Source: Candidatus Multivorans sp.
Lineage (GTDB): Bacteria > Acidobacteriota > Thermoanaerobaculia > Multivoradales > Multivoraceae
Length of the DNA: 64,000 nucleotides
Assembly: GCA_965216125.1 (NCBI GenBank)
Contig: OZ244152.1
Coordinates: 2,755,035 to 2,819,034 of the forward strand
Direction: 5' to 3'
Positions 9,005-41,948 of this stretch are shown piece by piece (positions within the stretch are counted from its first letter, which is position 1; each line of letters opens with the position of its first letter). The translations under genes and the position numbers were made by a program. The notes under the pieces were generated by a model. The model had not been told where the DNA came from, made no database searches, and was given only the letters and a program-made list of their open reading frames with translations.

Positions 9005-9005
9005 C

Positions 9006-15767: not shown

Positions 15768-17696
15768 CTATCGGCACGGGAATGCCTTCAAGTCGCTCTT
15801 CGTGGCGGCGGTTGCGCCCTGCCGGTTCGTATGCGTCCAGGGCGGCCCGTCGTCGGGACCCGTCACCCAGAGGTTGAACTCCAGTGTGGTCACCGGCGCC
15901 ACGAAGATCCAGCGATGCCCGTTGTTCTTACAGCCGTCGAGTACTTTGACGAGGACCTCGGCGTTGACGCGGTCGAAGAACCACAGGATGCCGGACTGGC
16001 TGGATGCCCAGACGCCGGCCCTGGCCTGACCCTCCTCCCCGCTGGGGGTCCGATAGCACATGCTGACCTCGTAACCGCCGTCGAACTGAAGCGCCGCGGT
16101 AGTCGGCGTGCAGACTTCGGACTGAGACGGCGGATCCGGGGTCGGATCCGGATCGGGATCCGGATCCGGGTCCGGTTGAGGCGGGCGGGTACCGCCCCTC
16201 CCGGCGAAGCCGTCTCTGATCCAGTCGAACACCTTCGTGTTTGGCACGGTGCCGCGCACGTTCTCCGCCGTGCGGCCGACCGCGTAGATCATCACGTCTT
16301 CGCCGGCGTGCGTCTCTAAGAACAGCGGGACGGTTGCCTCCTGCCGGTATGCCGAGTCGCTGCTGCTCGAAGGAACGGCGCCGCCGTAGCCGGCCGTCCT
16401 GTCGCTGTTCGGATTGACGCGCGAACCGCTCCGATGTCCCGGCCCGTTGGCGTAGCCCAGGATCGTGTAGGGAATGCCCCCCGAGTCTCCGCTCTCCGAG
16501 ATCGTCCCGCCGCTGTCCATGTCGTGGACCGTCCCCAGGATGCCGTTGTGTGGCTGGTTGCGGAACGACGCGGGCACTGAGCGGGGGTTGTAGCGCAGGT
16601 CGCCGAGCGGTCGCATCGGATAGCCGGCGATCGTGAAGACGTGGCTGTGGTCGGCCGTCGCGAGGATCAGCGTGCTGTTGAGATTGACGCTACGCTGTCC
16701 GGCGTTGATCGCGCGATCGAACATCCGGGTGTCGGTGAAGGCGCGAAAGGCATTCCCTTCGTGGTGCGCGTGGTCGATTCGGCCCGCCTCGACCATCAGG
16801 AAGTACGGCTTTCCCGTTGCGTTGAGAATTTGGATCGCCTTCCTCGTCATCTCCTCCAGGCTCGGCTGGTCGCTGTTCCGGTTCGCTTCGTACGCCAGAT
16901 GACTCGAAGCGAACAGACCGACCGCGCGTCCGGAACCGCCCAGCGCGTTGAGCCCCTGACGGTTCCAGGCGTAGGTGTAACCCCGTTGCTGCAGCTCGTT
17001 TCGCAGGTCGCGGCCGTCCGCTCGACTTCCCGGGCTCCCCTCCTCGTCGGTCGCCGAGGTGGGGAGGAAGTGCCGCCTGCCGCCTCCGAAGATGACGTGG
17101 AGCCCCTGGCCGAGTCTGTCGTTGTAGCCCCCTCCGCCCGGCACCATCTGCGCGGCGATCTCGTTTTCCTGGTTGCGGTTGTTGACATGCGCGAAGACGG
17201 CCGCCGGCGTCGCGTGAGTGACGCGCGTAGTTGTCACGATTCCGACCGCGTAGCCCATTGAACTCGCCAACTCGGCGACGTTGGTCAATCGCGGGCCGTT
17301 GCCATTGCCGTTGAAGTCTCCGTACTCGGTGGTTGCGCCGTAGCCGATCACGCCGGAGTTCGTCTGGACGCCGGTCATCATCGCCGACATCGTGGCCGCG
17401 CTGTCAGGGGTGATGTAGTCGGCCGACGCAGTCCGCGAGATGGCGGTATGGGGCATGCGGTCAAGAGCCAGCTCCCCGTCCACCCCCACCGTCGCAATGC
17501 GAGTGGAGGTGACAGTCGACACCCCCATGCCGTCGCCAACGAACAGGATGACGTTGTTCTTCTGCGCCGAGGCAGGCAGCGCCGCCACCAACAGGAATAC
17601 AACCGTCGACAGAGTGCACGTCAACGCCGCGAGACTCCTGCGCGCGCCGTGGGTCGATACGAAGGTACTTTCCATGGCCAGAACCTCCTTCTTCAT
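15768..17696 (-). CDS. Secreted alkaline phosphatase (PhoA family) fused via a (PD)n linker to the shared four-Cys domain
   Basis: Signal peptide. VGDGMGVST active-site region and ATADHSHVF metal-ligand motif of PhoA. Linker PDPDPDPDPDPTPDPP. C-terminal CTPTTAALQFDGGYEVSMCY..AEVLVKVLDGCKNNGHRWIFVAPVT..AFPC. Confidence 0.8.
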   Translation of the reverse strand: MKKEVLAMESTFVSTHGARRSLAALTCTLSTVVFLLVAALPASAQKNNVILFVGDGMGVSTVTSTRIATVGVDGELALDRMPHTAISRTASADYITPDSAATMSAMMTGVQTNSGVIGYGATTEYGDFNGNGNGPRLTNVAELASSMGYAVGIVTTTRVTHATPAAVFAHVNNRNQENEIAAQMVPGGGGYNDRLGQGLHVIFGGGRRHFLPTSATDEEGSPGSRADGRDLRNELQQRGYTYAWNRQGLNALGGSGRAVGLFASSHLAYEANRNSDQPSLEEMTRKAIQILNATGKPYFLMVEAGRIDHAHHEGNAFRAFTDTRMFDRAINAGQRSVNLNSTLILATADHSHVFTIAGYPMRPLGDLRYNPRSVPASFRNQPHNGILGTVHDMDSGGTISESGDSGGIPYTILGYANGPGHRSGSRVNPNSDRTAGYGGAVPSSSSDSAYRQEATVPLFLETHAGEDVMIYAVGRTAENVRGTVPNTKVFDWIRDGFAGRGGTRPPQPDPDPDPDPDPTPDPPSQSEVCTPTTAALQFDGGYEVSMCYRTPSGEEGQARAGVWASSQSGILWFFDRVNAEVLVKVLDGCKNNGHRWIFVAPVTTLEFNLWVTGPDDGPPWTHTNRQGATAATKSDLKAFPCR

Positions 17697-17892: not shown

Positions 17893-20800
17893 TCAGTGCC
17901 TGGGTCCCGGATCGGGGCGAAATCTCGAAGGGGCTGGCGCCGGCGGCGGTTCCACCCTGCCCGCCTCGGCCAGCTCTCCTCTAGCGATGTCCTCGAACGA
18001 CTCGATGCCCTTGCGCAGTGGCTGAAGGGGTAGCACTCCGGCACCGGAGCTCTTCAGAGCCGGCGCCGCCGATGCGGCGTTGGCCGTCTCGCAGGTCCAG
18101 ACGCAGGCCTGTACGCGGTCAAGACCCCGTCGAACGCAGTCGCGTTGGCAGGCTTGAACCGCCCCACTGGGCGCCTTTGGCTGCGAGAAGTACCTCGATC
18201 CGCGAATGGGGATCCCATTCCCGAACTGCATGCAGACGACTGTCAGTGCGGTCACGTTCGTTTGCTCGCTGGCAACGAAGACGGGCTGGACTGTGTCGTG
18301 GTCTGGCGCTCTGTCGCCGCTGGCGGCGGCGAACCTCGCTACCGCCGGGCCCGACCCGACGATCATCATCCGCTGATTGCCGCCATCTTTCGGCTCCAGC
18401 CAGTCGCCGGGGCTGTACGCGATGTCCTGGATTCCGTCGCCGCGCAGCAGCATGGTCTGAAACGAGTCCGCGCCGATGCTCAGAGAGGTCGAACCGGTCG
18501 CGGCGTCGACACCCAGCAGGTCTCGGCCTGCATCCTGTGGCGGGTGGCCGGGCGGTACGAGTTCCGGAGGGAAGTTGCTGAGGGAGTCACCGCTTCTGAA
18601 GTCGATAAACCCGTCCAACGTGAGCGGCGCATGACCCTTACGGTGAATCGTGACGGTGTATTTCGCTGCATCGCTGGAGATGAACTCGAGATCGAAGATC
18701 CACCGCTCGTCCGATTCCGGCCTACACGATCCAAACCGTCCGAAACACAAGACGAGTCGAGCCGTGTTGGCGCCGGCACGTTCGTATGCGTAGCGTCCGA
18801 AGCGAGACCTTACAGGGCGTTCTTCATCACCTGAGGGTCTCGAATGCACCACACTGTCAGTGCCAAGATGGATGGACACCGTACCGCTACGGTTGCGATA
18901 TCGACCGCCAATCTGAAGGCCGGGTAAGAACTGCTTGCCCTGGACCAGCTTCCCGAACTCCGTCTGGTTTCGCGGTGCGAGACTCTCCGGCGCCGGTGGC
19001 GGATCCTCAAGGTCGAAGTCGGTGTTCACTCCCGCGCCCCCGCATTCGTCCAGGAACGAACCGGCGGTAAGGGATGAGAACAAGAGGGAGAGCGAACAGC
19101 CGGAGCGGCCGATCTCGTCGTACTCGAGGGTAATCAGGCTCCGGTCGGGACCGGTCTTTTCGTAGCGGTAGCTGCCGTGGACACGCCGGCCGTCTGTCCC
19201 TTCGCTGAACCTGCCGGTTGCCAGGAAACGCCGGTCGCTGAGCCTGCCGCCGGGCCCCAGCCGATCCTGGAAGTCCTCGCGGTCCAGCGGCGACCGATCC
19301 GTTTGCGGTATTCCGGACACCGGTGCGGACCAATCGCAATCCCCCTCCGGGCCGAAGGGACGGATTCGAACGTCATAGCGTTGGAGGTTCGTAAGCCCGG
19401 ACAGGTACACGAGGTCCTTCTCGCGGCCCGTGACGACGACGCGGTTGCCCCAGGCGCCATTCGAGCCGGTGCGCCGCTCGATCTCGTAGCCCTGCACCGC
19501 GGCTGTCTCGTCGTCGTCCTCCAGTGGATCCCAGCGCACGACGAGTAGCCGGTCCTGGGGATTGAGGCGCAGCCTCGGCGGTGCGGAACAACTCTGCACG
19601 AGGTCCAGGATCTCGATCATGACCGGGAAGCTCGCCGTGTCGTCATGGACATCCCGCGCCTCCACCGTGACGTTGTAGGTGTCCCGAGCCTCGAAGTCGT
19701 AGGTGCGACCGCTGCGGGTGCGGATCTGCCCGGTTTCGGGAACGACCCGAAAACTCTCCGCGTCCTGTCCCTTCAAGCTGTAGGTGAGGATGTCCCGGAG
19801 GCCGTCGGGGTCGACGGCGGCGACGGGGAGGCCTACATTGATGTCTTCGCCGGCGTTCTCGTTCACCGAGACGGTCGTCGGAGTGGTGGCGGGGAACGTC
19901 GGCGGGTCATTGATCGGGATGCCGCTCGTCGTGCCTGTACCCACCGACGACCAGATGTCCGGCGAACCGGTGTTGCATGATGCGGTGCGGCGGGATCGGT
20001 ACCGCGCTTCGTAGGTTGTACCGGCCCGAAGCCCGCTGAACGTGGTTGAGACGGAACCGGTTGCTGCGCTGGTCGACGAGTTGCGAACCGGCAGACACCC
20101 CACATCGGCCCATGCGGTTTGGGGCCTCCGCCGCCGAACCTGATAGTCGTAGGCGCGTGTTTCCAGGGGCCGCAACGTGGTGGGGAACGCGACATCGAGC
20201 GCGTCGTCGCTTCGGCCGACCTCAAGAGCAGGCGCCGCGGAAGTGGGCGACGTGACCCGCACATCGAAGGTCGAGAGTCCCGACGGTTCGCCTCGGCTGT
20301 TGGCGGCCACAACCGTGACGGTTGCCATTCCGGCCTTCGCTGCTGTGACAAGGAGCAATCGCTCCGATCTTGAACCTCTCACCTGCTCCACGACGGCGAC
20401 GTCGTCGTCGTCGGACCATGAGCCGAAGCTGTACAGATCGTCGTCGGCGTTCGCCACCCCGACGAACCATGTGGTCGTATCGCCTGAGGCGACCTCCGTT
20501 GCGCCTCCGCTCTCAAGCGCGGGCGGTGCCTCGGGAACGCTCACCTCCACGGCAGCGGCGGCGGAACAGTTGTTCGCGGTGTTCCCGTCGCCTGACACGG
20601 AGTCGACGCAGGCGCCGTAGTAGTGGGTACCGGCGGTCGACGGGGCCGTCAGCCTGATCGAGTTCGTGCTTGTCTCGGACGCGGCGAGACCGCTCACCAG
20701 GTCAGTGCCGACCGCTCGGTCGTTCATGGTGATCGTGGAATCCTGAGAACGGTAGTAGCTGAGGGTGGTGGGGGTTGCCTCGCTGTCGCCGCGATTCTCG

Positions 20801-21354
20801 ATGACCACTCGCAGCGTGAAGGAGTCTCCCGGCCCGAGGTCGGCGTCGCGGACCGACGCCGAACGGACGGTCAGATCCGCCCCGTACGCGTCGTTCGTCT
20901 CGCACCTGAACGCCGTGATGTCGCTCCTGGTCGCCGCGGTCTCACCCAGTCTGTTCCGGTGGTTCCAAGGGTTGCCACGGCTGCTCGTGACCTGCAGGTT
21001 GAACGCCACATCGGTCACGGGCGCTACGAACGCCCAACGGTAGCCGTTGTGCGCACAGCCGTTGAGCACTTTGACCAACATCTCCGCGTTCTCGCGACTG
21101 AAGAACCACATCAGCCCCGACTCGCCCGAGGCCCAGATCCCGGCCCGACCCTCGCCTACGAGCCCTTCCGCGGTTTCATAGCAGAGACTCACGCTGTAGC
21201 CGCCATCGAACACCAACGCCGAGGTGCTCGGCGTGCAGTCGCTGTATTCACCGCTGCTCAAGACGGCCTCGGCACGCGCAAGTGGGCCACCGGCGAACGT
21301 CAGCATGGTCACGATTGCGGCGAGACACGCAGCGCTGCGGTTTTCCGATCTCAC
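17893..21354 (-). CDS. Giant secreted adhesin-like protein with an N-terminal four-Cys domain, then CARDB, Ig-like, Fn3 and cadherin-like domains
   Basis: The signal peptide is followed directly by CTPSTSALVFDGGYSVSLCY..AEMLVKVLNGCAHNGYRWAFVAPVT..AFRC. A CARDB-like segment (DLTVRSASV..VIENRGDSEA). A cadherin-like segment (VSVNENAGEDINVGLPVAAVDPDG). Fn3-like segments. A C-terminal region of about 500 aa is unassigned. Confidence 0.75.
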   Translation of the reverse strand: MRSENRSAACLAAIVTMLTFAGGPLARAEAVLSSGEYSDCTPSTSALVFDGGYSVSLCYETAEGLVGEGRAGIWASGESGLMWFFSRENAEMLVKVLNGCAHNGYRWAFVAPVTDVAFNLQVTSSRGNPWNHRNRLGETAATRSDITAFRCETNDAYGADLTVRSASVRDADLGPGDSFTLRVVIENRGDSEATPTTLSYYRSQDSTITMNDRAVGTDLVSGLAASETSTNSIRLTAPSTAGTHYYGACVDSVSGDGNTANNCSAAAAVEVSVPEAPPALESGGATEVASGDTTTWFVGVANADDDLYSFGSWSDDDDVAVVEQVRGSRSERLLLVTAAKAGMATVTVVAANSRGEPSGLSTFDVRVTSPTSAAPALEVGRSDDALDVAFPTTLRPLETRAYDYQVRRRRPQTAWADVGCLPVRNSSTSAATGSVSTTFSGLRAGTTYEARYRSRRTASCNTGSPDIWSSVGTGTTSGIPINDPPTFPATTPTTVSVNENAGEDINVGLPVAAVDPDGLRDILTYSLKGQDAESFRVVPETGQIRTRSGRTYDFEARDTYNVTVEARDVHDDTASFPVMIEILDLVQSCSAPPRLRLNPQDRLLVVRWDPLEDDDETAAVQGYEIERRTGSNGAWGNRVVVTGREKDLVYLSGLTNLQRYDVRIRPFGPEGDCDWSAPVSGIPQTDRSPLDREDFQDRLGPGGRLSDRRFLATGRFSEGTDGRRVHGSYRYEKTGPDRSLITLEYDEIGRSGCSLSLLFSSLTAGSFLDECGGAGVNTDFDLEDPPPAPESLAPRNQTEFGKLVQGKQFLPGLQIGGRYRNRSGTVSIHLGTDSVVHSRPSGDEERPVRSRFGRYAYERAGANTARLVLCFGRFGSCRPESDERWIFDLEFISSDAAKYTVTIHRKGHAPLTLDGFIDFRSGDSLSNFPPELVPPGHPPQDAGRDLLGVDAATGSTSLSIGADSFQTMLLRGDGIQDIAYSPGDWLEPKDGGNQRMMIVGSGPAVARFAAASGDRAPDHDTVQPVFVASEQTNVTALTVVCMQFGNGIPIRGSRYFSQPKAPSGAVQACQRDCVRRGLDRVQACVWTCETANAASAAPALKSSGAGVLPLQPLRKGIESFEDIARGELAEAGRVEPPPAPAPSRFRPDPGPRH

Positions 21355-21364: not shown

Positions 21365-22573
21365 CTAGAAGCGTTGTCCTACGGGCTCGTCGGCGCACTT
21401 GAATGCCGACGTCTCGCTCTTGGTTGCCGCCGTCACATTCTGCTGGTTGCTGTGGGTCCAGCGGTCGTCGTTCGGACCCGTTACCCAGAGGTTGAACTCC
21501 AGAGTGGTGACCGGCGCCACGAAGACCCAGCGGTGGCCGTTGTGGGCGCAGCCGTCGAGCACCTTGACCAGCACCTCAGCGTTGTCCCGGTCGAAGAACC
21601 ACAGGATGCCGGACTGGCCGGATGCCCAAACGCCGGACTTGGCCTGGCCTTCTTCTCCCTCGGGCGTGCGGTAGCACATGCTGACTTCGTAGCCGCCGTC
21701 GAACTGGAGCACCGTCGTCGTTGGAGTACAGCCGGGGGTTGGAGGCGGATCCGGGTCCGGATCCGGGTCCGGGTCGGGCGTGCTTCCGCCGTGGTCCACC
21801 CCCAGGCGGATGAAGTACGCCGTAGCGACCGTTTCGGCGTTCCATGAACCCCATCTGCCTCCTGATGAGGATCGGGCCCGCCAGAAGTTCCTGGTGCCGC
21901 CTGGTCCGTTGCGATCCTCGGCGAAGACCTTGCCGCTTGAGTTCGTCCACCGGACGCTCAGCCATGTATCGCCGCTGGCAAGTCGCTGCCGGGTGATGTC
22001 GCCTCTGTCGACCGATACGCAGGTCCCTCTGCCTCTGGTCAGGCCGGAAGCCGTCGCCGAGTACGATGCCAACTGACTTCCCGGTCGCCCACCGGAGTTG
22101 CGGTAGAACGTCAGGACGAAAGACACGCTGGCGTTGTTGTCGTCTTCTTCTCGGCCAAAACACACCGTCCCAGAAGTGACGGTACCGGCACGAGGCAATC
22201 GGAATCGCTGTGCGTACTCCTGTTCATGAGCATTCGTGATGCGAGTGAACGACTCCGGTGTACCATCGTCGTACTTGTACTCAGTTACGGCGGCAGAAGC
22301 GACCCTGGTGGGTTCGGACGCCGCCGCATCGACCAGCGAGATGTCGTCGGCCCCGTAGACGACCACGTCACCGACGGCCTCCTTGACGAAGACCTGCTCG
22401 CCGCGGACCTGGAGCGGCTCTTCCCAGACCAACAGATCCCGACCCTGCTGGGCGGCCAGAGGCGCCGAAACAGCCAAGGCCGCTAGCACAGACAGAATCG
22501 CTATGCAGGTTGGCCGCCCGAGGCTGGATTTCGATCGGCTTCGCTTTCTTTCTTTTGTTCCTGGGGCACGCAT
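21365..22573 (-). CDS. Secreted protein: unknown N-terminal domain, (PD)n linker and the shared C-terminal four-Cys domain
   Basis: Start placed at the internal Met preceding signal peptide CIAILSVLAALAVSAPLAA. PDPDPDPDPDPPPTP linker. C-terminal CTPTTTVLQFDGGYEVSMCY..AEVLVKVLDGCAHNGHRWVFVAPVT..AFKC. Only 10 nt from the next gene. Confidence 0.7.
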   Translation of the reverse strand: MRAPGTKERKRSRSKSSLGRPTCIAILSVLAALAVSAPLAAQQGRDLLVWEEPLQVRGEQVFVKEAVGDVVVYGADDISLVDAAASEPTRVASAAVTEYKYDDGTPESFTRITNAHEQEYAQRFRLPRAGTVTSGTVCFGREEDDNNASVSFVLTFYRNSGGRPGSQLASYSATASGLTRGRGTCVSVDRGDITRQRLASGDTWLSVRWTNSSGKVFAEDRNGPGGTRNFWRARSSSGGRWGSWNAETVATAYFIRLGVDHGGSTPDPDPDPDPDPPPTPGCTPTTTVLQFDGGYEVSMCYRTPEGEEGQAKSGVWASGQSGILWFFDRDNAEVLVKVLDGCAHNGHRWVFVAPVTTLEFNLWVTGPNDDRWTHSNQQNVTAATKSETSAFKCADEPVGQRF

Positions 22574-22669
22574 GGTCGCTCTCACTCCGATTTGCGGGAA
22601 GTTGTTGGCTGGTTGTGTGGACACTGCCCGTCGTTCAGCGACGCCATGTTCGAGCAGCGCCAAGGCACA

Positions 22670-25569: not shown

Positions 25570-25715
25570 GGGCAGGCTGGCGATGGGGGGTGCGAGGCGT
25601 TCGTCGTGCCGTTCCCCCCTAAAACTGTAGGCTTATTCGGTTCCCCTGTTCCATAGAGTGCGGTCGCCCCACCGCCTCTGGCGAGGCGGTGATCTGAACC
25701 GGGGGCCACCGGAGC

Positions 25716-28700: not shown

Positions 28701-31700
28701 GCGGCAGCCAGCGTCTCGGGATGGCGGTATGTCGGGGGTCTTGCGGGTTACGCCAGCGGGACCGTTACCGGCAGCTACGCCATCGGGTCCGTGTCGGGCG
28801 CCAGTTCCGTGGGAGGTTTGGTGGGTTACGGCCATTTGGTGCATGTCAACAACAGCTACGCTGCCGTGTTGGTGTCGGGCGACTCCGCGGTCGGCGGCCT
28901 CATGGGATCGATCTACGCGGGTCCTTCCGGGGATTTCTACCCACGGAGCAGCATCGCGAGGTGCTATGCGGCCGGCTTCGTATCAAGCGCGGGGATGAGC
29001 GGAGGTTTGATTGGCGCCCTCGCTCCTGGACGGGCGCCCAGCGTGCAGGACAGCTACTGGGATGCCGATACGTCGGGGCGCGGCACTGGAACGTATGGCC
29101 TGAGCTTGACGACGGAAGAGTTGCAGGCGGCCAACCGCGGGCACAGTGGCTTCTTCTACTGGGCGGTCGGAGCTTGGCAGTTCGGTCCGGCGACGGCCTA
29201 CCCGGTGCTTTCCTTCGACCTGAACAGGAACGGCGCCTCCTCGTGGCGGGAGTTTGGCCATCAGTTGAGGGGCGGCCCGGCCCTCACGAAGGTCTTCGAT
29301 CAGACCGGACTCGAGCTGCGCTGGACGGCGGTGAACACGAGCCACTGGACTTCGCCGCCTGCAGTGACCTACAGCGTCTATCGCCATGATGGCTACACGG
29401 CCGAACTCCTTGCGGCGGACCAGACTGGCCTGGCCTACCGAGTCGCTTCTTGGGAGAGCGGCAGCGACTACACGTATCAAGTCGTGGCGTTGGTCGACGG
29501 TAGGGAAGCCGCGTGGAGTTCGATCGTCGATTCCAACGCGTCGGCGACGGGCTTTCCTGCTGTCACCGGCATGCCGCTGCAAGGGGGGACTCTGACCGCT
29601 TCGACGACCGGCATTGTTGACCTGAACGGCATGACCGGTGCGGCATTCACTTACCAGTGGTACTTCAGCGATGCCGGTGTGGACGTGGAGATTCCGGGAC
29701 AGACGGCGCCCGGGCTGCAGATCGGTCCGGCTGAGACCGGCAAGTCGGTCCGGGTGCGGGTGTCCTTCACCGATGACGCCGGTTACATCGAATCGATCCT
29801 CTCTCCCGTGGTGCAGACCGCTGCCCTGCTGTTGACGGCGAATCCACAGGAGGTCGTGGAAGCGTCGGGAACCGCGACCGTGACGGTGAGCACGGGTGGG
29901 GTCACCTGGGCGACACACCAGTTGATCTCTCTCGGCGAGACCCCGCTCGAGTCCGCGACTGAGGGTGAGGACTACCTGATCGGTTCGAGGACTCTGACGC
30001 TGCAGGCCGGTGGTCACTCGGTTTCGACGACGGTCACGGCCCTGGACGACCGGATTGACGAGGACGGAGAGATCGTCGGGCTGGTGGCCCGGCTGGGTGG
30101 TGCGGAGGCCTCCCAGTCCGTGACGATCGTCGACGATGACGAGCGGGGAGTCGTGGTCTCGGAGACGTCGCTTTCCGTGGATGAGGGGAGCTCCTCGGGT
30201 TACTCGGTCGTCCTGACCTCCGAGCCGACGGCGCAAGTGGTGGTGGAGGTGGAGTTGGACCGATCGGGCACCGGCGTGTCCCTCGACAGGACGACGCTCA
30301 CTTTCACGGAGAACGATTGGGATCTGCCGCAGGAGATCCAGGTCAGTGCGGCGACCGACTTGGACACGGAGGCGGACGCCGGGGTCACCGTTCGGCATCT
30401 GGCGAGTGGTGGTGACTACGATTCCGTGGCCGTGGCCGACCTGCGAGTCAGGGTCGTGGAGACGGATGCTAGCTCGGTATCGGTCGACGACGAGCGGGTG
30501 GGGGAAGGTGACGGCGTTGTCGAGTTCCACGTTGCCCTGAGCCTGGTCAGTAACGCGGATGTAACCGTCGACTACGCCACGTCGGACGGGTCCGGGCCGG
30601 ACGGAGCGGAGGCCGGTTCGGACTACACGGCATCGACTGGCACGATCACGTTCGTCGCGGGGTCGACGACGGGTCAGGTCATCCGGGTGGCCATCCTGGA
30701 CGACGCGGCGGACGAAGCCGAGGCTGAAGCCTTCAGGCTGACGCTGAGTAACGCGGTAGGCGCCTCCCTGGCCGGAGGCGGACAGACGTTGCAGGTAGTG
30801 GGCACGATCGTCGACGACGACGGTGCCGAGGTTTCCGTTTCCTTCGGGTCGGCGAACTACGAGGTCGCCGAGGGAGAGTCGGTGGACGTAGCCGTGATTC
30901 TGAACCGGGATCCCGAAAGGATCGTGACGATCCCGCTGATCAGGACTCATCACGGCGGCGCGACAGAGGGCGACTACTCGGGAGTCCCGACGAGTGTGGT
31001 CTTCGGCAGCGGCGTTACCTCGAGGGTCTTCGAGTTCACGGCCCTGGCGGACGACGACGACGATGACGGCGAGGCCATCGTGCTTCGCTTCGGGACGCTC
31101 CCTGTTGGGGTGAGCTGGGCCGGTGACACCACTCTCGCCATCCTGGACGATGACGTTGGCGGCGGCGGCGGAACCGGTGGCGGAACCGGTGGCGGCGGCG
31201 GGTCTCCGCCTCCGCCTGACCCCGATCCACCGCCGCCACCGCCACCCACGGTGTCGCTCGAGGCGGCGGAGGCTCTGGAGAGCGCTGGCGCGGTTGTGTT
31301 CGACGTCCGCCTGAGTGCGTCCAGCGGCGCCGCGGTGACGGTCGACTACGCGACGGCGGACGGCGCTGGCGCCGGCGGAGCGGAGGCAGGTTCGGACTAC
31401 ACGGCGACGCAGGGGACGCTGACCTTCCCCGCCGGTTCGTCAACGCGGCAGATTCGCGTCTTGGTGGCGGACGACGCGGCGGACGAAGGCGGTGCGGAGA
31501 CGTTCACGTTGACGCTCCGGAGTCCCCGGAACGCGTCGCTGGCCGGCGGCGGTTCGGTGCTGCGGGTGACGGGGACGATTCGCGACGACGACTCCGGTCC
31601 TCCCGTGGCGGCCTTCGCGGTGACGGGCGCGAGCTGCGCCGCCGACCTGTGCCGGACGGTAACCGGGGAAGCGGTGGGGTTCGTGGACACGAGCGCCGGG

Positions 31701-32300
31701 ACCGTGCGCTCGCGGCGCTGGGAGTTCGGTGACGGGAAGACGTCGCGGTCTCGCAGGCCGGAGTACGCCTGGTCGTCGCCGGGGTTCTACGAGGTCACGC
31801 TGAGGGTGAGCGACGGTGTGACCGAGTCCGTGGCGTCACGGAAGTTTCTGGTCGAGGCGAGCGATCCGGCGGGCTCCTGCGTGGCGGATGAGGAGACGCT
31901 CTGCCTGCAGGACTCGCGCTACGCGGTGACCGTGGCCTGGTGGACCGGTGCCGGCGAAAGTGGCGCCGGCAGCGTGGTCCACGCGGGAACGAACGACTCG
32001 GGTCTGTTCACGTTCTTCAGCCGTGAGAACTGGGAGGTCCTGATCAAGGTGCTGGACGGCTGCGCACTCAACGGTCATGTGTGGGTGTACGGCGCGTCGA
32101 CGACGGACCTGGGCTACACGATCCGGGTGGCCGACACGGTGACCGGGACCGTGAAGGAGTACCGGAACGAGCCGGGCTTGCCGGCGCCCGCGATCACGGA
32201 TGCGACGGCGTTCCCCGGCAGTTGTGACGGCGGTGCCGCGGTGTCGGCCGGCCTGGCGGCAGCGGATGCGGTCTCGAGCCCACGGCGAGCAGCTCGGTGA
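25716..32300 (+). CDS. Giant (2194 aa) secreted metzincin zinc protease with Calx-beta, Ig-like, GLUG-repeat and PKD domains and the shared C-terminal four-Cys domain (paralog 1)
   Basis: HEVGHMMGLMHD (HExxHxxGxxHD). Several Calx-beta-like modules (VTLTDND.., TIVDDD..). GLUG-type repeats (GNGHTISNL.., VGGLVGY). Gly-rich GGGGTGGGTGGGGGS and SPPPPDPDPPPPPPP linkers. One PKD (WEFGDG). C-terminal ASDPAGSCVADEETLCLQDSRYAV..NWEVLIKVLDGC. Confidence 0.8.
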   Translation: MSLESGADWRLNAVLTLGLTVLGGLISDSVRGQAPALFSAARPSQAEVAAQAVRDDDAVLRRRLAPVEPSTLAGVRALVLERSHPVAVTLNLFDDTVLTGIVERTALTFSGGYSVSGRLADEPFGSMTLVVNGGAVTGSVRTVGGTYAIRSTGGGLHSISEVDESQAPSECGVAEWTIGRAAAADPKDRRPSAKAPFAVRSEVDAALTTVDVLLAYTPRALADEGGFDAIVNRMELMIAETNEAYAASGVVQRLDVAAVVALAYKSPETTDDENLAATLDVDAIYAKREEVGADLIVLIASWPGSPIAGVAPGVTTVSARSDHLALAVVSVHRFGSLTFAHEVGHMMGLMHDRRAECRNGSCTAATFPYSYGYVNQGAFAEDAPVEARWRTILGISPTCINRGFYCTRLPFFSNPDLYFDGEPMGVPGEEMTDGRDGPADAVRSLNGTREIVAGYREFDLGALAFAVDSYAASEGGADAQVTLELEAALARRIVVQLLVTAADGARAADHSNVPATIVFEPGETEKTFTVSAVDDAFDDDGESISIAIGEIAGGGGQGSSSTTTVTLTDNDMVAGAPTVNAVSLLSDAGSDAAYALGDAIEAGVTFTKSVVVTGAPQLQLTIGGEQRQADFSSAAGELLTFAYTVASGDLDSGGISIAEDSLNLNGGTVKDSSDQNAVLDHGAILTQADHRVDGVAPELEEATVRLIRLTLTYDETLEEAPPPTPSSFSVLADGSSLVVTAVEVDGSTVRLMLDPWVRQGETVSLDYNPSGNVVRDIAGNQADALSGQAVTNTSPLVVYDLDLDGLIEIANLEQLNAVRYDLDGDGEPTASGATDYLAAFPDAGSVLECGSDGCEGYELMSDLDFDTNENGQIDVGDDYWDGGSGWTPLGSGPTDAFNATFEGNGHTISNLFIDSDAAYVGLFGYAGDSSLIEAVGLVKADVSTTSEVAGGAGILVGVTTSGVGFCFAEGSLSGHEGAGGLVGKVLPGGTIYVGYAAASVSGWRYVGGLAGYASGTVTGSYAIGSVSGASSVGGLVGYGHLVHVNNSYAAVLVSGDSAVGGLMGSIYAGPSGDFYPRSSIARCYAAGFVSSAGMSGGLIGALAPGRAPSVQDSYWDADTSGRGTGTYGLSLTTEELQAANRGHSGFFYWAVGAWQFGPATAYPVLSFDLNRNGASSWREFGHQLRGGPALTKVFDQTGLELRWTAVNTSHWTSPPAVTYSVYRHDGYTAELLAADQTGLAYRVASWESGSDYTYQVVALVDGREAAWSSIVDSNASATGFPAVTGMPLQGGTLTASTTGIVDLNGMTGAAFTYQWYFSDAGVDVEIPGQTAPGLQIGPAETGKSVRVRVSFTDDAGYIESILSPVVQTAALLLTANPQEVVEASGTATVTVSTGGVTWATHQLISLGETPLESATEGEDYLIGSRTLTLQAGGHSVSTTVTALDDRIDEDGEIVGLVARLGGAEASQSVTIVDDDERGVVVSETSLSVDEGSSSGYSVVLTSEPTAQVVVEVELDRSGTGVSLDRTTLTFTENDWDLPQEIQVSAATDLDTEADAGVTVRHLASGGDYDSVAVADLRVRVVETDASSVSVDDERVGEGDGVVEFHVALSLVSNADVTVDYATSDGSGPDGAEAGSDYTASTGTITFVAGSTTGQVIRVAILDDAADEAEAEAFRLTLSNAVGASLAGGGQTLQVVGTIVDDDGAEVSVSFGSANYEVAEGESVDVAVILNRDPERIVTIPLIRTHHGGATEGDYSGVPTSVVFGSGVTSRVFEFTALADDDDDDGEAIVLRFGTLPVGVSWAGDTTLAILDDDVGGGGGTGGGTGGGGGSPPPPDPDPPPPPPPTVSLEAAEALESAGAVVFDVRLSASSGAAVTVDYATADGAGAGGAEAGSDYTATQGTLTFPAGSSTRQIRVLVADDAADEGGAETFTLTLRSPRNASLAGGGSVLRVTGTIRDDDSGPPVAAFAVTGASCAADLCRTVTGEAVGFVDTSAGTVRSRRWEFGDGKTSRSRRPEYAWSSPGFYEVTLRVSDGVTESVASRKFLVEASDPAGSCVADEETLCLQDSRYAVTVAWWTGAGESGAGSVVHAGTNDSGLFTFFSRENWEVLIKVLDGCALNGHVWVYGASTTDLGYTIRVADTVTGTVKEYRNEPGLPAPAITDATAFPGSCDGGAAVSAGLAAADAVSSPRRAAR
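31201..32215 (+). repeat. Near-identical segment of about 1 kb (copy A) shared by the 3' ends of the two giant paralogs
   Basis: The DNA from SPPPPDPDPP.. through ..AITDATAF matches 37381..38395 with only scattered substitutions. The rest of the two genes is only about 50-60% identical at protein level. Confidence 0.8.
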
Positions 32301-35300
32301 CCGGCGAAGTGCCGGGTGGACAAGTGAGCGCACGGGGGAGTCGACGCTGGCGGGGACGTTCATGGTCGACGCGGTCCCTTGCCGCTTGCAAGTGGCCGGC
32401 CGTGGCGCTGGCGGTGTTGGTGGTTTCGCTTCCGGCTTTCGCCCGGGCGCAGGTGAGGCCCGAGGGCGAGGTTCTGGCCGGTGTGCCTGCGGATGCCGTC
32501 AGTCGCTCCGTACTCGATCCCGTATCTCTTTCGGTGATCGACGTGGCGGTGGTCTACACCCCGACCGCTCGGGACTTCAAGGGCGGGACCTCCGCGATCA
32601 AGGACGAGATCGACCTCATGGTCGCGGAGGTGAACGGCGCCTATGCGGCGAGCGGCGTGCACCAGCGCATCGTTCTCGTTGCGGCGCAGGAGGTGGCCTA
32701 CACGGAAGTCGGCCCGTTCGACATCGTGCGGCTCGAGCGGAAGACGGACGGCCACATGGACGGCGTGCATGCGATGCGCGACGAGGTCGAGGCCGATGCC
32801 GTCGTGCTTCTCGCAAAATGGGCGGAGAGCAGTGTGTCCGGCATCGCGCCGTTGATGTCCACTGTGTCGAACGACTTCGAGAAGCGGGCCTTTGCCGCCG
32901 TGAACATCGAGTCTTCGACCTTGACCATGGCCCACGAACTCGGACACATCATGGGCCTGCTTCACGATCGCTACCTGGAGTGCGACGCGAGTGCATGCGA
33001 TCCGGCGGCGTATCCGTACTCATACGGGTACGTGAACCAGGAGGCCTTTGAAGATGGCGCCCCGGAGTCGGCCCGTTGGCGGACGATCATGTCGTACGAC
33101 AACCAGTGCGGCGCCAACGGTGGGACCTGTACCCTGTTGGCCCGTTTCTCGAATCCGCATCAGCTCTACCCAGGCTATGGCGGCGATCCGCTCGGCGTGC
33201 CTGGCTCCGAGGTGACGAACGAGGTCGAGGGTCCGACGGATGCGGCAAGAAGCCTCAACCAGACGCGCGAGACGGTGGCAGGTTTCCGCCGCTTCGACGC
33301 CGCCTCGGTGTCGTTCGCCGCGGCGGACTACGAGGCAACAGAGGGCGGAGACGACGCTCTGGTGACCGTCAGACTGGACGTGGCGCCCGGCCGGCCGCTC
33401 TTCATTCCGCTGGTCGCCGTAGCCGCAGGCGGCGCCATGCAGGCCGACTATGCCGGCTTGCCGGAGATGGTGTCGTTCGCCGCGGGCGAGACCGAGCAGA
33501 CCTTCACTGTTCAGGCCGTGGACGACGCTGCCGACGATGACGGCGAGACGATCACGATCAGTCTGGGAGGCCAGGTGCCGGCAGGCAGCCCGGCTACGAC
33601 GACGGTGACGCTGGTTGACGACGATACGGTGCCTGGGGCGCCCCAGGTGCATGCGGTGACCATCGTGTCGAACCCTGGGCCGGACTCGACCTACGCGGAG
33701 GGCGAGACGATCGAAGTAGAGGTGGCGTTCACGAAGACCGTGACCGTCACGGGCACGCCCCGGATCGAGCTGACGGTGGGCGAAGAGGAGGAGTACGCGG
33801 AGTATGGGCGCGAAGCCGGAGAGGTCCTGACCTTCGCCTACGTCGTCTCCAGCGGCGACAGCGCAGCTTCCGGGATCAGCGTTGCCGGGGGAAGCCTGGA
33901 CCTGAACGGCGGGACGATCAAGGACGGCTCCGATCAGGACGCTGCCCTGAGCCATGGGGCGATTGCGATTCAGGCCGACCACAAGGTCGATGGGGTCGGG
34001 CCGACGTTGGAGAGCGCCTCCGTCGACATTGTGGAACTCACCCTCACCTACTCGGAAGATCTCGACTCGACCAGGTACTCGGGACCGGCGGGGTCGGCCT
34101 TCGAGGTGACGGCCGCTTCGTCTACCGTGACGGTGGGGGACGTGGACGTTCGCGGGCGGACGGTGGTGCTGAGGCTCGACCTGGCAGTCCTCAACGGGCA
34201 GACGGTTACCCTGAGTTACACGCCCGGGACATCGCCGCTGTCGGACGCTGTCGGGAATGCCGCGTCCGTCTTCTCTGGCGAGAACGTCACGAACGTCACG
34301 GTTCCCATCGTCTTCGATCAGGATCTCGACGGGCTGATCGAGATCAGCAGCCTGCAACAGCTCGATGCCGTGCGCTTCGATGCGGAGGGCGACGGTGCGC
34401 CGACAGCCTTGGGAGCTTCGGAGTATCTGGCCGCTTTCCCCGATGCGGGTACGCGCTTGGCCTGTGGCGGAAGGGGCTGCGGGGGGTACGAACTCAAGGC
34501 GGATCTGGACTTCGACACCAACGGCAACGGGCAGTTCGATGCCGGTGACGATTTCTGGAACGGCGGCGCCGGCTGGACCCCCGCGGCGGCCGCCCTCGAC
34601 GAGTGGTTCACGGCGACGTTCGACGGCAATGGCCACGCCATTCGCAACCTGACCATCGACTCGAGCTCCGAGTATGTGGGCCTGTTCGGTGTCGTTGGTC
34701 CGTCGAGTGCAATCCGGGACCTCGCGCTGACCGACGTCGACGTTTCTTCCTCAGGTCGCGGTGCAACCGGTGGGCTGGTCGGACACTCCAGGGCAGAAAT
34801 CACCCGCGTCTACGTAACCGGGTCGGTGGTGGGCGAGGACAATGTCGGCGGCCTCGTCGGAACGTTCGTTCGAGGCCAGGTGCAGGGCAGCTACGCGACC
34901 TGCATCGTTGCGGGCGGTGATCATGTTGGCGGCTTGGCCGGGTTCGCCTCGGGCAGGATCAGCGATAGCTATGCAGCCGGGTCGGTTTCTGGTGTGAACA
35001 GTGTCGGAGGCCTGGTTGGGAAGGCTCACGCCGCTTCCATCACCGCCAGCTACGCGATCGGGTTCGTGTCGGGTGAGACCGACGTTGGCGGTCTGGTCGG
35101 CGCCGGCTATTCCGGTCGGATCGAGAACAGCTACGCCACCGGCCGCGTTTCGGGCGTGCAGGGTGCCGGGGGGCTGCTCGGCGCGCGCTTCTTCGAGCGC
35201 GAGCCCGTCATCGCGGACAGCTACTGGGATGTCACGGCGTCGGGGCATCAGAGCGGCGACTATGGGGAGGGCCTGACGTCGACTGCGCTTAAGGCGCCCA

Positions 35301-38300
35301 CGACGAATAGCGGCGTCCTTGGAAACTGGACGGGCCAGTGGCGGTTCGGCGCCGCGACGGAGTACCCGGTTCTCGCGTTCGACCTGGATGGGAATGGCGA
35401 CGCCACCTGGGAGGAGTTCGGCTATCAGCTCCGCGCCGGTCCCGTTCTCACGAGGACGGTCCGGCCCGCCGAGGTGGAACTGAGTTGGACCGCGGTGGAC
35501 GCCAGCCATTGGAATCCCGTGCCGGACGTCAGCTACAACGTCTACCGTGACCACGGTGAGAGTGTCGAGCTGATCGCTACGGACCTGAGTGGTTTGTCGT
35601 ACCTCGACGACGCCCTGGTCGCCCGCGCCAGGCACAGCTACCAGGTGGCGGCGCTGGTGAACGGATACGAAGCTGCGCGTAGCGGGATCGTGGCGTCGAA
35701 CGCGCCATCCACAGGCGGTCCTGCCATCACCGGCACACCGCTGGTCGGAGAGACGCTGACCGCGTCGACGGCAGGCATCGACGACGGCAACGGTCTTCTC
35801 AATGCGTCTTTCTCCTTCCAGTGGCTGTACACGCAGGGCGGAGCTGAAGTGGCCATCTCAGGAGCGACGGGCGTCCAGTACGTGATCCAACCGGCGGATG
35901 TGGGCAGGACGTTGCAGGTCCGGGTGACGTTCACCGATGACTCCGGTTACGAAGGGGAGCTCGTGAGCCCGGGCGTGATGGCCGTGATGGTCACGGCAAC
36001 ACTCAGCGAGGCCGAAGTCGCGGAGACGGGAGGAACTACGTACGTGAGGCTGAGCACCGGCGGAGCGTCCCTGCCGAACGACTTGACGGTCGCTCTCCAG
36101 TTGGGCGGGACGGCGACCGAGGGCGAGGACTACCGGATCGACTCGCATAGCCTGACGCTCCTGGCGGGGACTTCCTGGACGACGACAACGATTACGGCCG
36201 AGGACGACAGGATCGACGACGACGGGGAGACAGTCCTGATCGTGGCGGTTCTTGGCGGCCGGCCTTTGGGGACGATCACGTTGACGATCGTTGACGACGA
36301 TCGGCGGGGAGTTGCGGTCTCGGACTCCGCCCTTTCGGTGCGCGAGGGAGGGTCGGCGAGCTACACGGTCGTTCTGAACTCCGAGCCGACGGCGGAGGTC
36401 GAGGTCACGGTGCGGCTGGATCGAACAGGAACCGATGTCTCCCTCGACAAGACGGCGCTGACCTTCGCGCCGGCCGATTGGAACGTTCCGCAGGAGATCC
36501 AAGTCAGCGCAGCGGGAGACTCGGACACGGCGACGGACGCTCCGGTCACTGTTCTCCACCGGGTGAGTGGCGGGGACTACGGCTCCCTGAACGTGCCGGA
36601 CCTGCGGGTGACCGTCGTGGAGACGGGCGCTCCCAACCTGTCGGTCGACGATCGGAGGGTGGCGGAGGGCGGTGGCGCGATCGTCTTCGACGTCACACTG
36701 AGCCTGGCGAGCAGTGAGGAAGTGACCGTCGACTACGCGACTTCGGACGGTTCGGGAGTGGATGCTTCCGTGGCGGGTTCGGACTACACGGCGACGGATG
36801 GCACGGTCATCTTCGCCGCTGGAACGACGGCGAGCCAGCCGATTCGCGTTGTGATTCTGGACGACACTGTGGACGAGGCCGAGGCCGAGACGTTCGTGCT
36901 GACTCTGAGCAACGCGGTCAACGCTACCTTGGCCGGCGGTGGGCAGGTGTTGCAGGTGACGGGAACGATCGATGATGACGATGTTCCGCGGGTCGTGGTG
37001 TCGTTTGGGTCGGAGAGCTATGAGGCCGTCGAAGGCGCATCGGTCGAGATCGAGGTGAATCTGGACAGGGATCCGGAACGATTGCTGACGATTCCGCTGG
37101 TCCAGGAGCGTCGTGGCGGGGCGGCGGAGGGCGACTACCTGGGAGTCCCTGCGAACGTGGTCTTCGGCAACGAGGTCACTTCGAGGACGTTCGAGTTCAC
37201 GGCCGTGGAGGACGCGGACGACGATGACGGCGAAGCCGTCGTGCTTCGTTTCGGATCGCTCCCGGACGCGGTCACGGCGGGTGGTGACACGATCTTGGCC
37301 ATCCTGGACAACGACGGCGGTAGCGGTGGCGGAACCGGTGGCGGCGGAACCGGTGGTGGCGGAACCGGTGGTGGCGGCGGGTCTCCGCCTCCGCCTGACC
37401 CCGATCCGCCCCCGCCGCCACCACCACCACCCACGGTTTCGCTCGCGGCGGCGGAGGCTCTGGAGAGCGCTGGCGCGGTGGTGTTCGATGTCCGCCTGAG
37501 TGCGTCCAGCGGCGCCGCGGTGACGGTCGACTACGTCACCGCGGACGGCGCTGGCGCCAGCGGAGCGAGAGCAGGTTCGGACTACACGGCGACGCAGGGC
37601 ACGCTGACCTTCCCCGCCGGTTCGTCAACGCGGCAGATTCGCGTCTTGGTGACGGACGACGCGGCGGACGAAGGCGATGCGGAGACGTTCACGTTGACGC
37701 TCAGCAGTCCGACGAACGCGTCGCTGGCCGGCGGCGGTTCGGTGCTGCGGGTGACGGGGACGATTCGCGACGACGACTCCGGTCCTCCCATGGCGGCCTT
37801 CGCGGTGACGGGCGCGAGCTGCGCCGCCGACCTGTGCCGGACGGTCACCGGGGAGGCGGTGGGGTTCGTGGACACGAGTGCCGGGACCGTGCGCTCGCGG
37901 CGCTGGGAGTTCGGTGACGGAACGGCGTCGCGGTCCCGGAGGCCGGAGCATTCCTGGTCGTCGCCGGGGTTCTACGAGGTCACGCTGAGGGTGAGCGACG
38001 GGACGACCGAGTCGACCGCGTCACGGAAGTTCCTGGTCGAGGCGAGCGATCCGGCTGGCTCCTGCGTGGCGGATGAAGAGACGCTCTGCCTGCAGGACTC
38101 GCGCTATGCGGTGACCGTGGCCTGGTGGACCGGTGCCGGCGAAAGTGGCGCCGGCAGCGTGGTCCACGCGGGAACGAACGACTCGGGTCTGTTCACGTTC
38201 TTCAGCCGTGAGAACTGGGAGGTCCTGATCAAGGTGCTGGACGGCTGCGCACTCAACGGGCATGTGTGGGTGTACGGCGCGTCGACGACGGACCTGGGCT

Positions 38301-38437
38301 ACTCGATCCGGGTGGCCGACACGGTGACCGGGACCGTGAAGGAGTACCGGAACGAGCCGGGCCTGCCGGCGCCCGCGATCACGGACGCGACCGCGTTTGC
38401 CGAGGGCTGCGCGTTGCAGGTCCGTACTTCACCGTAG
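32297..38437 (+). CDS. Giant (about 2040 aa) secreted metzincin/Calx-beta/GLUG/PKD protein with the C-terminal four-Cys domain (paralog 2; start codon uncertain)
   Basis: Overlaps the upstream stop (GTGA). Signal peptide WPAVALAVLVVSLPAFARAQ. HELGHIMGLLHD. Same domain order as paralog 1. The last 340 aa or so are nearly identical to paralog 1. Confidence 0.8.
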   Translation: MTGEVPGGQVSARGSRRWRGRSWSTRSLAACKWPAVALAVLVVSLPAFARAQVRPEGEVLAGVPADAVSRSVLDPVSLSVIDVAVVYTPTARDFKGGTSAIKDEIDLMVAEVNGAYAASGVHQRIVLVAAQEVAYTEVGPFDIVRLERKTDGHMDGVHAMRDEVEADAVVLLAKWAESSVSGIAPLMSTVSNDFEKRAFAAVNIESSTLTMAHELGHIMGLLHDRYLECDASACDPAAYPYSYGYVNQEAFEDGAPESARWRTIMSYDNQCGANGGTCTLLARFSNPHQLYPGYGGDPLGVPGSEVTNEVEGPTDAARSLNQTRETVAGFRRFDAASVSFAAADYEATEGGDDALVTVRLDVAPGRPLFIPLVAVAAGGAMQADYAGLPEMVSFAAGETEQTFTVQAVDDAADDDGETITISLGGQVPAGSPATTTVTLVDDDTVPGAPQVHAVTIVSNPGPDSTYAEGETIEVEVAFTKTVTVTGTPRIELTVGEEEEYAEYGREAGEVLTFAYVVSSGDSAASGISVAGGSLDLNGGTIKDGSDQDAALSHGAIAIQADHKVDGVGPTLESASVDIVELTLTYSEDLDSTRYSGPAGSAFEVTAASSTVTVGDVDVRGRTVVLRLDLAVLNGQTVTLSYTPGTSPLSDAVGNAASVFSGENVTNVTVPIVFDQDLDGLIEISSLQQLDAVRFDAEGDGAPTALGASEYLAAFPDAGTRLACGGRGCGGYELKADLDFDTNGNGQFDAGDDFWNGGAGWTPAAAALDEWFTATFDGNGHAIRNLTIDSSSEYVGLFGVVGPSSAIRDLALTDVDVSSSGRGATGGLVGHSRAEITRVYVTGSVVGEDNVGGLVGTFVRGQVQGSYATCIVAGGDHVGGLAGFASGRISDSYAAGSVSGVNSVGGLVGKAHAASITASYAIGFVSGETDVGGLVGAGYSGRIENSYATGRVSGVQGAGGLLGARFFEREPVIADSYWDVTASGHQSGDYGEGLTSTALKAPTTNSGVLGNWTGQWRFGAATEYPVLAFDLDGNGDATWEEFGYQLRAGPVLTRTVRPAEVELSWTAVDASHWNPVPDVSYNVYRDHGESVELIATDLSGLSYLDDALVARARHSYQVAALVNGYEAARSGIVASNAPSTGGPAITGTPLVGETLTASTAGIDDGNGLLNASFSFQWLYTQGGAEVAISGATGVQYVIQPADVGRTLQVRVTFTDDSGYEGELVSPGVMAVMVTATLSEAEVAETGGTTYVRLSTGGASLPNDLTVALQLGGTATEGEDYRIDSHSLTLLAGTSWTTTTITAEDDRIDDDGETVLIVAVLGGRPLGTITLTIVDDDRRGVAVSDSALSVREGGSASYTVVLNSEPTAEVEVTVRLDRTGTDVSLDKTALTFAPADWNVPQEIQVSAAGDSDTATDAPVTVLHRVSGGDYGSLNVPDLRVTVVETGAPNLSVDDRRVAEGGGAIVFDVTLSLASSEEVTVDYATSDGSGVDASVAGSDYTATDGTVIFAAGTTASQPIRVVILDDTVDEAEAETFVLTLSNAVNATLAGGGQVLQVTGTIDDDDVPRVVVSFGSESYEAVEGASVEIEVNLDRDPERLLTIPLVQERRGGAAEGDYLGVPANVVFGNEVTSRTFEFTAVEDADDDDGEAVVLRFGSLPDAVTAGGDTILAILDNDGGSGGGTGGGGTGGGGTGGGGGSPPPPDPDPPPPPPPPPTVSLAAAEALESAGAVVFDVRLSASSGAAVTVDYVTADGAGASGARAGSDYTATQGTLTFPAGSSTRQIRVLVTDDAADEGDAETFTLTLSSPTNASLAGGGSVLRVTGTIRDDDSGPPMAAFAVTGASCAADLCRTVTGEAVGFVDTSAGTVRSRRWEFGDGTASRSRRPEHSWSSPGFYEVTLRVSDGTTESTASRKFLVEASDPAGSCVADEETLCLQDSRYAVTVAWWTGAGESGAGSVVHAGTNDSGLFTFFSRENWEVLIKVLDGCALNGHVWVYGASTTDLGYSIRVADTVTGTVKEYRNEPGLPAPAITDATAFAEGCALQVRTSP
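37381..38395 (+). repeat. Near-identical segment of about 1 kb (copy B), counterpart of 31201..32215
   Basis: As above. It is preceded by three copies of GGAACCGGTGG(C/T)GGC, against two copies in paralog 1. Confidence 0.8.
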
Positions 38438-38491
38438 GGGTACCCGGTATCGCGGGCCTTACGGTCCGCTTCGAGTGGGAACGACGCTGGT

Positions 38492-41869: not shown

Positions 41870-41948
41870 TTCACGGCTGGCACGCGGAGCGCGCCAGCCG
41901 GGTTCCCGGAGGGATGCCGGCCTTAGAGGCAGTTGGGCAACTTGTCGT

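Follow-up and report, generated by a model that had tools for sequence, protein, structure and literature searches.

Near-identical 3' modules of tandem giant genes in a Candidatus Multivorans chromosome point to recurrent intragenomic recombination

The stretch of Candidatus Multivorans DNA analysed here (contig OZ244152.1, positions 2,755,035 to 2,819,034; 'the window', 64,000 nucleotides (nt) in its full length) contains two tandem genes for giant secreted proteins, P1 (25716..32300, an open reading frame (ORF) of 2194 amino acids) and its paralog P2 (32297..38437, 2046 amino acids), which have diverged strongly over most of their length, yet end in a block of about 1 kb that is nearly the same in both. 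We consider it highly probable (about 0.9) that this 3' block owes its persistent near-identity to homologous recombination that recurs within the genome between the 3' modules of giant paralogs, i.e. by a process that involves more gene copies than these two. Positions are those of the window unless another contig is named, and features lie on the + strand unless stated otherwise.

The shared 3' tract of P1 and P2

The translations of P1 and P2 are colinear and contain the same kinds of domains, i.e. an M12B/reprolysin-like metzincin, an SWM repeat, a GLUG-type region, several Calx-beta stretches (five in P1), a PKD domain and a C-terminal domain (CTD) of ~115 amino acids with conserved Cys residues and two predicted disulfides. 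Overall identity is ~53% at the amino acid and ~60% at the nucleotide level, and per 50-codon window of a codon-aware alignment the bodies of the two genes range from 40 to 68% amino acid and from ~0.45 to 0.75 nucleotide identity. From ~31158 to 32215 nucleotide identity leaps to 0.93-0.99 and then drops again in the final codons. The homogenized tract itself extends over 31176..32213 in P1, where it comprises the end of a Gly-rich linker with poly-Pro, a Calx-beta domain (31245-31600), PKD (31601-31870) and CTD (31871-32213), and over 37355..38398 in P2 (Calx-beta 37430-37785, PKD 37786-38055, CTD 38056-38398). Identical bases occupy 986 of its 1038 ungapped columns (95.0%), the 18 gap columns all fall into the Gly/Pro linker, and the longest exact run between the copies is 152 nt. 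The original prediction, made from the sequence alone, had described about 1 kb of near-identical DNA at the ends of two otherwise weakly similar genes, with renewed divergence in the last codons, and was right on all of these points; the upstream edge that it had placed at 31201 exists, with its actual boundary slightly further 5', at 31176.

Both edges of the tract are sharp. The 5' edge lies within the low-complexity Gly/Pro linker, with ~95% identity inside and ~72% just upstream. In P1 this linker (31158..31244) consists of (GGN)n with 12-nt and 15-nt GGAACCGGTGG units followed by (CCN)n, and in P2 (37319..37429) of three 15-nt GGAACCGGTGGYGGC units and a longer poly-Pro stretch, which has two Pro codons more than in P1; the length of the P2 linker differs among strains. 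The 15-nt unit had been predicted to occur twice in P1 and three times in P2: the three exact copies in P2 are there (37331, 37346, 37361), whereas P1 has a single exact copy (31182) after a unit truncated to 12 nt (31170). At the other end, the codon-aware alignment has the tract stop after ..AITDATAF, and because this is 4 codons short of the conserved terminal Cys of the CTD (PGSC in P1, AEGC in P2), the 3' edge is a recombination-type boundary and not a domain boundary.

Synonymous sites follow the same pattern. In Nei-Gojobori estimates on the P1–P2 codon alignment, the synonymous (dS) and non-synonymous (dN) divergences are 0.124 and 0.027 in the tract, compared to 1.06 (i.e. saturated) and 0.39 in the body, and over the 1 kb that directly precedes the tract dS still reaches 0.78. 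Synonymous divergence is thus ~7-9-fold lower in the tract than in the remainder of the two genes, and is far from uniform along the alignment, as a gene conversion origin had led the original prediction to expect. Correspondingly, third-position identity is 0.911 over the 338 codons of the tract and 0.500 over the 1689 codons outside, and in a maximal-segment permutation test none of 2000 shuffles attained the observed segment. P1 and P2 thus share a block with sharp boundaries in which identity extends to synonymous sites, between homologous flanks that have diverged, which is the pattern sought for gene conversion. Within the tract, dS amounts to 0.118 in Calx-beta, 0.185 in PKD and 0.085 in CTD, with only 7-12 synonymous differences each, and a difference in age between these sub-blocks was not significant with so few sites (p~0.3, a chi-square estimate).

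Exchange and gene turnover between strains

A protein search identified window P2 with P0269 (100% identity) and P1 with P0270, and also found a third paralog, P0274; all three are encoded on one contig of 4,979,003 bp. Look-ups of the exact sequences of P1, P3, P0269 and P0274 returned no record. Syntenic loci in other samples were reached via the members of the 90% protein clusters of P1, P2 and P0274. Locus L052 has the gene order AMP-ligase, 2-hydroxyacid dehydrogenase, P1, P2, Py, P3, MFS, ferritin, Ldh; locus L051 has P1, Px, P2, P3, MFS, ferritin, Ldh, where Px and Py are additional giant genes; and L053 is a second locus with two further giant paralogs, 53_a and 53_b. A scan of contigs with an alignment of the gene bodies yielded only distant relatives (<=43% amino acid identity) and no usable orthologs; most of these distant loci are without PKD and CTD, which only L001, L002 and L009 carry.

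The clearest trace of exchange is found in L052. In the 1.2 kb before the tract, orthologs from different strains share 98.4-100% identity, compared to 70-73% between P1 and P2. Inside the tract, L052 P1 is 98.2% identical to its neighbour L052 P2 (100% over Calx-beta) and 94.5% identical to window P1. This was resolved further at fixed sites, at which one base is invariant in P1 (window and L051) and another in P2 (of all three strains). Upstream of 31150, L052 P1 shows the P1 state at 310 of 313 such sites; between 31229 and 31871 it has the P2 state at all 37 sites (37/37), and from 31892 on, including the downstream flank, it returns to the P1 state. Over the 643 nt of this patch (31229..31871 in window P1 coordinates, with edges within 31194-31229 and 31871-31892), there are 4 differences between L052 P1 and L052 P2, as against 47 between L052 P1 and window P1 and a between-strain background of 14 in 1175 nt of the body, and five L052-specific alleles are common to both L052 copies. 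Within the block, the L052 copies thus cluster with each other, whereas outside of it each clusters with its orthologs. All this argues for a lineage-specific gene conversion of ~650 bp from P2 to P1; this direction also fits the 8 differences per 643 nt between L052 P2 and its orthologs as against 47 for L052 P1, in a comparison of present-day sequences. Together with the low dS in a sharply bounded block, the L052 patch supports the gene conversion that the original prediction had proposed. Its 5' end and the older boundary both fall into the Gly/Pro linker, so that the P1 linker (31158..31244) marks the 5' limit of the old and the recent tract alike.

The fixed differences between P1 and P2 are also unevenly spread, with 33 in Calx-beta plus PKD and 4 in CTD, and this patchiness suggests either several overlapping events or a more frequent exchange of the CTD. 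Separately, L051 P2 shows a tight cluster of ~9 substitutions relative to window P2 in its PKD part (the equivalent of 31762-31803 in window P1), which is partly common to 53_a and 53_b and would be consistent with a further short conversion patch, derived from another donor.

Beyond such patches, whole genes come and go. Px (3642-9899 in L051, 2085 amino acids) sits between P1 and P2 and is absent from the window and from L052. Because its N-terminal 1336 amino acids are without similarity to P1 or P2 and its C-terminal 740 amino acids are P1/P2-like, Px is regarded as an old member of the family. Window P1 matches L051 P1 at 135 consecutive informative sites (30908 to 31904), is mixed between 31949 and 32189, and from there on agrees with the 3' flank of L051 Px over 35 sites in a row, which defines a crossover zone in the CTD of P1 (31905..32195) with the L051 P1 type on its left and the Px flank type on its right. 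The junction between presence and absence of Px therefore falls inside the CTD, and a single megablast alignment connects window P1 from its 3' end through P2 into P3 with L051 8276..18735. Py (16073-20029 in L052, 1318 amino acids), located between P2 and P3, has a P3-like body (86% amino acid identity over 831 residues), after which come a poly-Pro run, two Calx-beta domains, PKD, and a CTD with the exact tail of P2 (..AITDATAFAEGCALQVRTSP); unequal recombination across the poly-Pro linker and the module seems to have produced it. In L051 P1, 22 sites in a row in the 3' half of the CTD agree with 53_b, a paralog from the second locus. The idea that the repeat could serve as a substrate for loss of the intervening gene thus agrees with what is seen among strains, which gain or lose whole giant genes with junctions in the module.

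A similar mosaic exists in a different species. L001, on a contig of 1.4 Mb, has two tandem giants (2600-5100 and 8290-10560) that, like P1 and P2, are mosaics, here of blocks with 96-100% and blocks with 60-85% identity, with CTDs that are 96-99% identical, PKD at ~60-76% and upstream blocks that range from 68 to 100%. The protein P0004, encoded on the same contig as L001, shares the last ~45 residues, including an unusual VAKEYGNEPG motif. In several public assemblies the PKD–CTD end is called as a separate gene of ~186 amino acids (10001-10561 in L001; 4162-4722 in L002), which starts inside PKD and overlaps the upstream giant gene, and most of the top matches of the domain search are such fragments; these calls suggest frameshifts, real or due to sequencing, near the low-complexity linker.

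Mechanism, alternative explanations and related systems

The mechanism behind these patterns is ordinary concerted evolution, and the locus is a new instance of a known process, in larger genes and in an uncultured lineage. Its main component would be non-reciprocal gene conversion, accompanied by occasional unequal crossover, within a recombining family that would comprise P1, P2, in some strains Px, and a second-locus paralog. Exchange would be of the RecA type and dependent on homology, with exact matches as long as 152 nt that could act as seeds. The tract boundary may be self-reinforcing, in that divergence further upstream would block the extension of heteroduplexes, and homogeneity of the CTD may in addition be favoured by a partner in anchoring or export that is common to all family members.

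Several observations weigh against this picture in its simplest form. The two copies in the window already differ by 5%, so that this genome itself shows no sign of a very recent event. Moreover, the tract types of P1, Px, P2 and 53_b are about equidistant from each other (94-95%, star-like), with 53_a at ~85% from them, and the older homogenization may not necessarily have been a direct exchange between P1 and P2; because four types are about equally distant, it must have involved several paralogs at two loci. Both non-reciprocity and RecA dependence are features that we infer from the sequences, and transfer of alleles between strains could have contributed to some of the mosaics.

A related scenario is reciprocal unequal crossover or cassette replacement, by which P1 would have gained its 3' end when Px was deleted and would owe its likeness to P2 to a module type inherited family-wide or from another strain. 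The Px-type 3' flank of window P1 with its crossover zone in the CTD, the near-equidistance of the four tract types and the 22 consecutive 53_b-like sites in the CTD of L051 P1 all speak in its favour. Yet window P1 is of the L051 P1 type at the 135 sites from 30908 to 31904, and its Calx-beta and PKD segments were therefore not imported by the deletion of Px, although they are still ~94% identical to P2, compared to ~72% just upstream. Furthermore, the internal patch in L052, with both flanks kept, is the signature of conversion and not of crossover. We thus regard this scenario as rather improbable for the 3' block as a whole; it is in any case a variant of the same recombination process and not a true alternative.

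The original prediction had also raised the concern that the repeat might have collapsed during assembly. A 1-kb repeat with 95% identity and copies 6.2 kb apart is indeed a classical problem for assemblers, which could have mis-threaded the copies or rendered one of them chimeric, and the matter is judged here from assemblies alone. Nevertheless, such an artefact is very improbable. Collapse or chimera in the window assembly appears unlikely because the copies differ by ~50 substitutions and two linker indels, because independent assemblies reproduce both types (with 1 difference per 643 nt between window P1 and L051 P1, and 8 between window P2 and L052 P2), and because the window proteins come from a single contig of ~5 Mb; the relatives are coverage-labelled assemblies with contigs of up to 1.4 Mb. 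The concern is largely answered by this recurrence of both tract types.

Still less room is left for strong purifying selection on the Calx-PKD-CTD module, instead of recombination, as the reason why the 3' ends are alike. The CTD does show a very low dN/dS (dN 0.004) and is conserved across thousands of proteins. Other copies of the module in the window, however, set a baseline for such constraint: PKD and CTD of P3, of a trypsin-like protease gene and of an LRR protein gene share 63-71% amino acid and 56-64% third-position identity with P1 and P2, and for the P3 module ~70% amino acid and 74% nucleotide identity represent the level without recent conversion. Because these copies are only 56-64% identical at third positions, selection on the module cannot account for the ~90% third-position identity between P1 and P2. 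Low dS is limited to a sharply bounded block, and selection alone is therefore ruled out; with a block that ends 4 codons before the terminal Cys, where there is no domain edge, and with P2 alleles residing in L052 P1, this explanation is in effect refuted. Programmed diversification of the C-terminal region by a diversity-generating retroelement (DGR) or by silent-cassette antigenic variation, of which differences clustered in short non-synonymous patches in PKD and Calx-beta as well as the surface or secreted nature of the proteins may be reminiscent, has a negligible probability, since the substitutions are not adenine-specific, as a DGR would require (A is the P1 base at 7/48 and the P2 base at 12/48 differing sites), and no reverse-transcriptase domain was found among the window ORFs scanned (all but some of the small ones), and silent cassettes do not agree with both copies belonging to full-length genes.

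Recurrent recombination in the 3' module finds parallels in several known systems. In Helicobacter pylori, the paralogous surface-protein genes babA/babB and homA/homB have 5' and middle parts that are similar between strains and 3' segments that are similar within a strain, a pattern that has been ascribed to RecA-dependent intragenomic gene conversion, which results in chimeric genes (PMC3960876). P1 and P2 of L052 carry the same within-strain 3' signature. In contrast to the H. pylori loci, which are dispersed and share an outer-membrane beta-barrel as their 3' part, the genes described here are 6 kb in size, arranged in tandem, share a module of Calx-beta, PKD and an unannotated domain, and are not known to undergo phenotypic switching. 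In the lpl genes of Staphylococcus aureus, a conserved stretch in every tandem paralog is the site of homologous recombination, strains vary in rearrangement and copy number, and evolution proceeds in units that begin behind the conserved stretch, include the intergenic region and continue into the gene that follows (Tsuru & Kobayashi 2008, PMC2568036). Similarly, the flank of window P1, the intergenic region and P2 travel with the tail of Px, and the strains differ in gene number and order with junctions in the conserved region, as Px and Py exemplify. The conserved region is central in lpl and 3'-terminal with ~1 kb here, and our genes have ten times the size of lpl genes and vary in their domain composition, as in the unrelated N-terminal 1336 amino acids of Px. 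A further parallel is provided by Brucella omp2a/omp2b, adjacent paralogs that are reported to swap segments by gene conversion and thereby form lineage-specific mosaics (PMC7050475). Segment exchange between adjacent paralogs is common to both cases, whereas omp2a and omp2b are short, arranged as inverted and not direct repeats, and exchanged over the whole gene. A literature search on the candidate genera returned nothing relevant to the locus.

The C-terminal domain and its genomic surroundings

The CTD is not confined to the giant genes. It occurs in eight genes of the first 42 kb of the window, attached to unrelated cargo, and falls into two subfamilies. Subfamily 1, usually found after PKD, ends P1 (31871-32228), P2 (38056-38413), P3 (41483-41851), the trypsin-like protease (gene 5..2656; PKD and CTD at 2021..2641 with ~70% amino acid identity to P1, CTD 2276-2653) and the LRR protein (gene 9006..11531; PKD and CTD at 10902..11522 with ~63% amino acid identity, CTD 11157-11528). 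Subfamily 2, encoded on the - strand, forms the C-termini of an alkaline phosphatase (gene 15768..17696; domain 15771..16121) and of a 432-amino acid protein (gene 21365..22663; domain 21368..21733), in both cases after a (Pro-Asp)n linker, and the N-terminus, behind the signal peptide, of a CARDB/cadherin/fn3 protein (gene 17893..21354; domain 20899..21243). The phosphatase and the 432-amino acid gene are ~82% identical at the nucleotide level over linker and CTD (15777-16160(-) and 21398-21780(-)) and show no similarity upstream of the linker, which suggests that the subfamily 2 module has moved between genes that are not homologous.

The CTD had no match in Pfam at E<=10 or in NCBIfam at E<=0.01. 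An AlphaFold2 model based on an alignment of 50 sequences is all-beta, with ~ten strands and one short helix (predicted local distance difference test score, pLDDT, 95.4), and a Foldseek comparison of this model with the PDB gave nothing below E=0.34. Nevertheless, the domain is widespread: a profile built from the eight window copies picked up 9,799 representative proteins with E<=0.001, of which 3,237 reach E<=1e-30, and they often carry 2-4 copies at any position in the protein. Because of these copy numbers and positions, which include the N-terminal one in the window, the CTD is to be seen as an extracellular domain in its own right and not as a strict signal for C-terminal sorting. Assignment to a known sorting domain (T9SS CTD, PEP-CTERM, GlyGly-CTERM, LPXTG) was rejected, as no model matched and the position is not strictly C-terminal. 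The diversity of its cargo suggests a role in binding or anchoring. One might even speculate that the Calx-PKD-CTD module is not just a passive target of recombination but a selected 'handle', i.e. a conserved 3' end of a cassette, delimited by low-complexity Gly/Pro linkers, by which giant genes are swapped, deleted or duplicated across strains and loci, with the CTD as a possibly undescribed anchoring or export domain whose partner enforces concerted evolution, but we consider this doubtful.

P1 and P2 carry a HExxHxxGxxH zinc motif (HEVGHMMGLMHD in P1, HELGHIMGLLHD in P2) in its HExxHxxGxxHD metzincin form. Reprolysin_3/4/5 of Pfam score above their cutoffs in both proteins (Reprolysin_4 with 49.7 and 51.4 bits, cutoff 22), and by motif and Pfam gathering score alike both classify as M12B (reprolysin-like) peptidases. 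This is reminiscent of the M12B/reprolysin-like metzincins with Calx-beta/PKD tails that are represented by NCBIfam Mep72; with 72 bits against a cutoff of 645, however, P1 and P2 are not equivalogs of Mep72, and the giant multi-domain architecture and the CTD belong to P1 and P2 and not to the Mep72 family. Start codons are uncertain for both genes (25716-25890 in P1, 32297-32402 in P2). The public gene call for P1 has 2136 amino acids and is thus shorter than the maximal ORF of 2194, the true start probably lying near 25890, whereas the public call for P2 (2011 amino acids) starts at 32402 inside an apparent signal peptide; the maximal P2 ORF begins with a GTG that overlaps the stop codon of P1 (GTGA).

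P3 (38492..41854), the third gene of the tandem, consists of SWM repeats, a long poly-Pro/acidic linker, and PKD and CTD at 41222-41836. In this linker (41070-41220), more than 30 Pro codons in a row precede a low-complexity stretch of Asp, Gly and Glu in front of PKD, and alignments of P3 to other strains break at this point. A scan of 25300-42200 for promoters and terminators found sites that were no commoner than expected by chance. The neighbouring genes represent chromosomal housekeeping functions, i.e. a fused B12 mutase, glutamyl-tRNA synthetase, an SNF2 helicase and an MFS transporter. The mutase is encoded by a single ORF of 1154 amino acids (12297-15761), in which a B12-binding, a MeaB-type GTPase and a methylmalonyl-CoA-mutase domain are combined as in a fused IcmF-like mutase. 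Named relatives of the module and the body carry the metagenome-assembled genome labels Holophagales, Acidobacteria, Ca. Versatilivoraceae, Vicinamibacterales and Ca. Multivorans (class Thermoanaerobaculia), and an uncultured member of Acidobacteriota is thus the probable source of the window.

Overall, the locus represents a clean, strain-resolved case of concerted evolution combined with a cassette-like gain and loss of genes for giant surface or secreted proteins. To our knowledge, such processes have seldom been documented in Acidobacteriota-type bacteria. For the analysis of these genes this means that their 3' modules are the spots where assemblies, ortholog calls and phylogenies mislead. 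The CTD, as a widespread and unannotated extracellular domain, merits a family definition and a structure, and it is this domain, together with the cassette-like turnover of the giant genes, that seems most worth following up.

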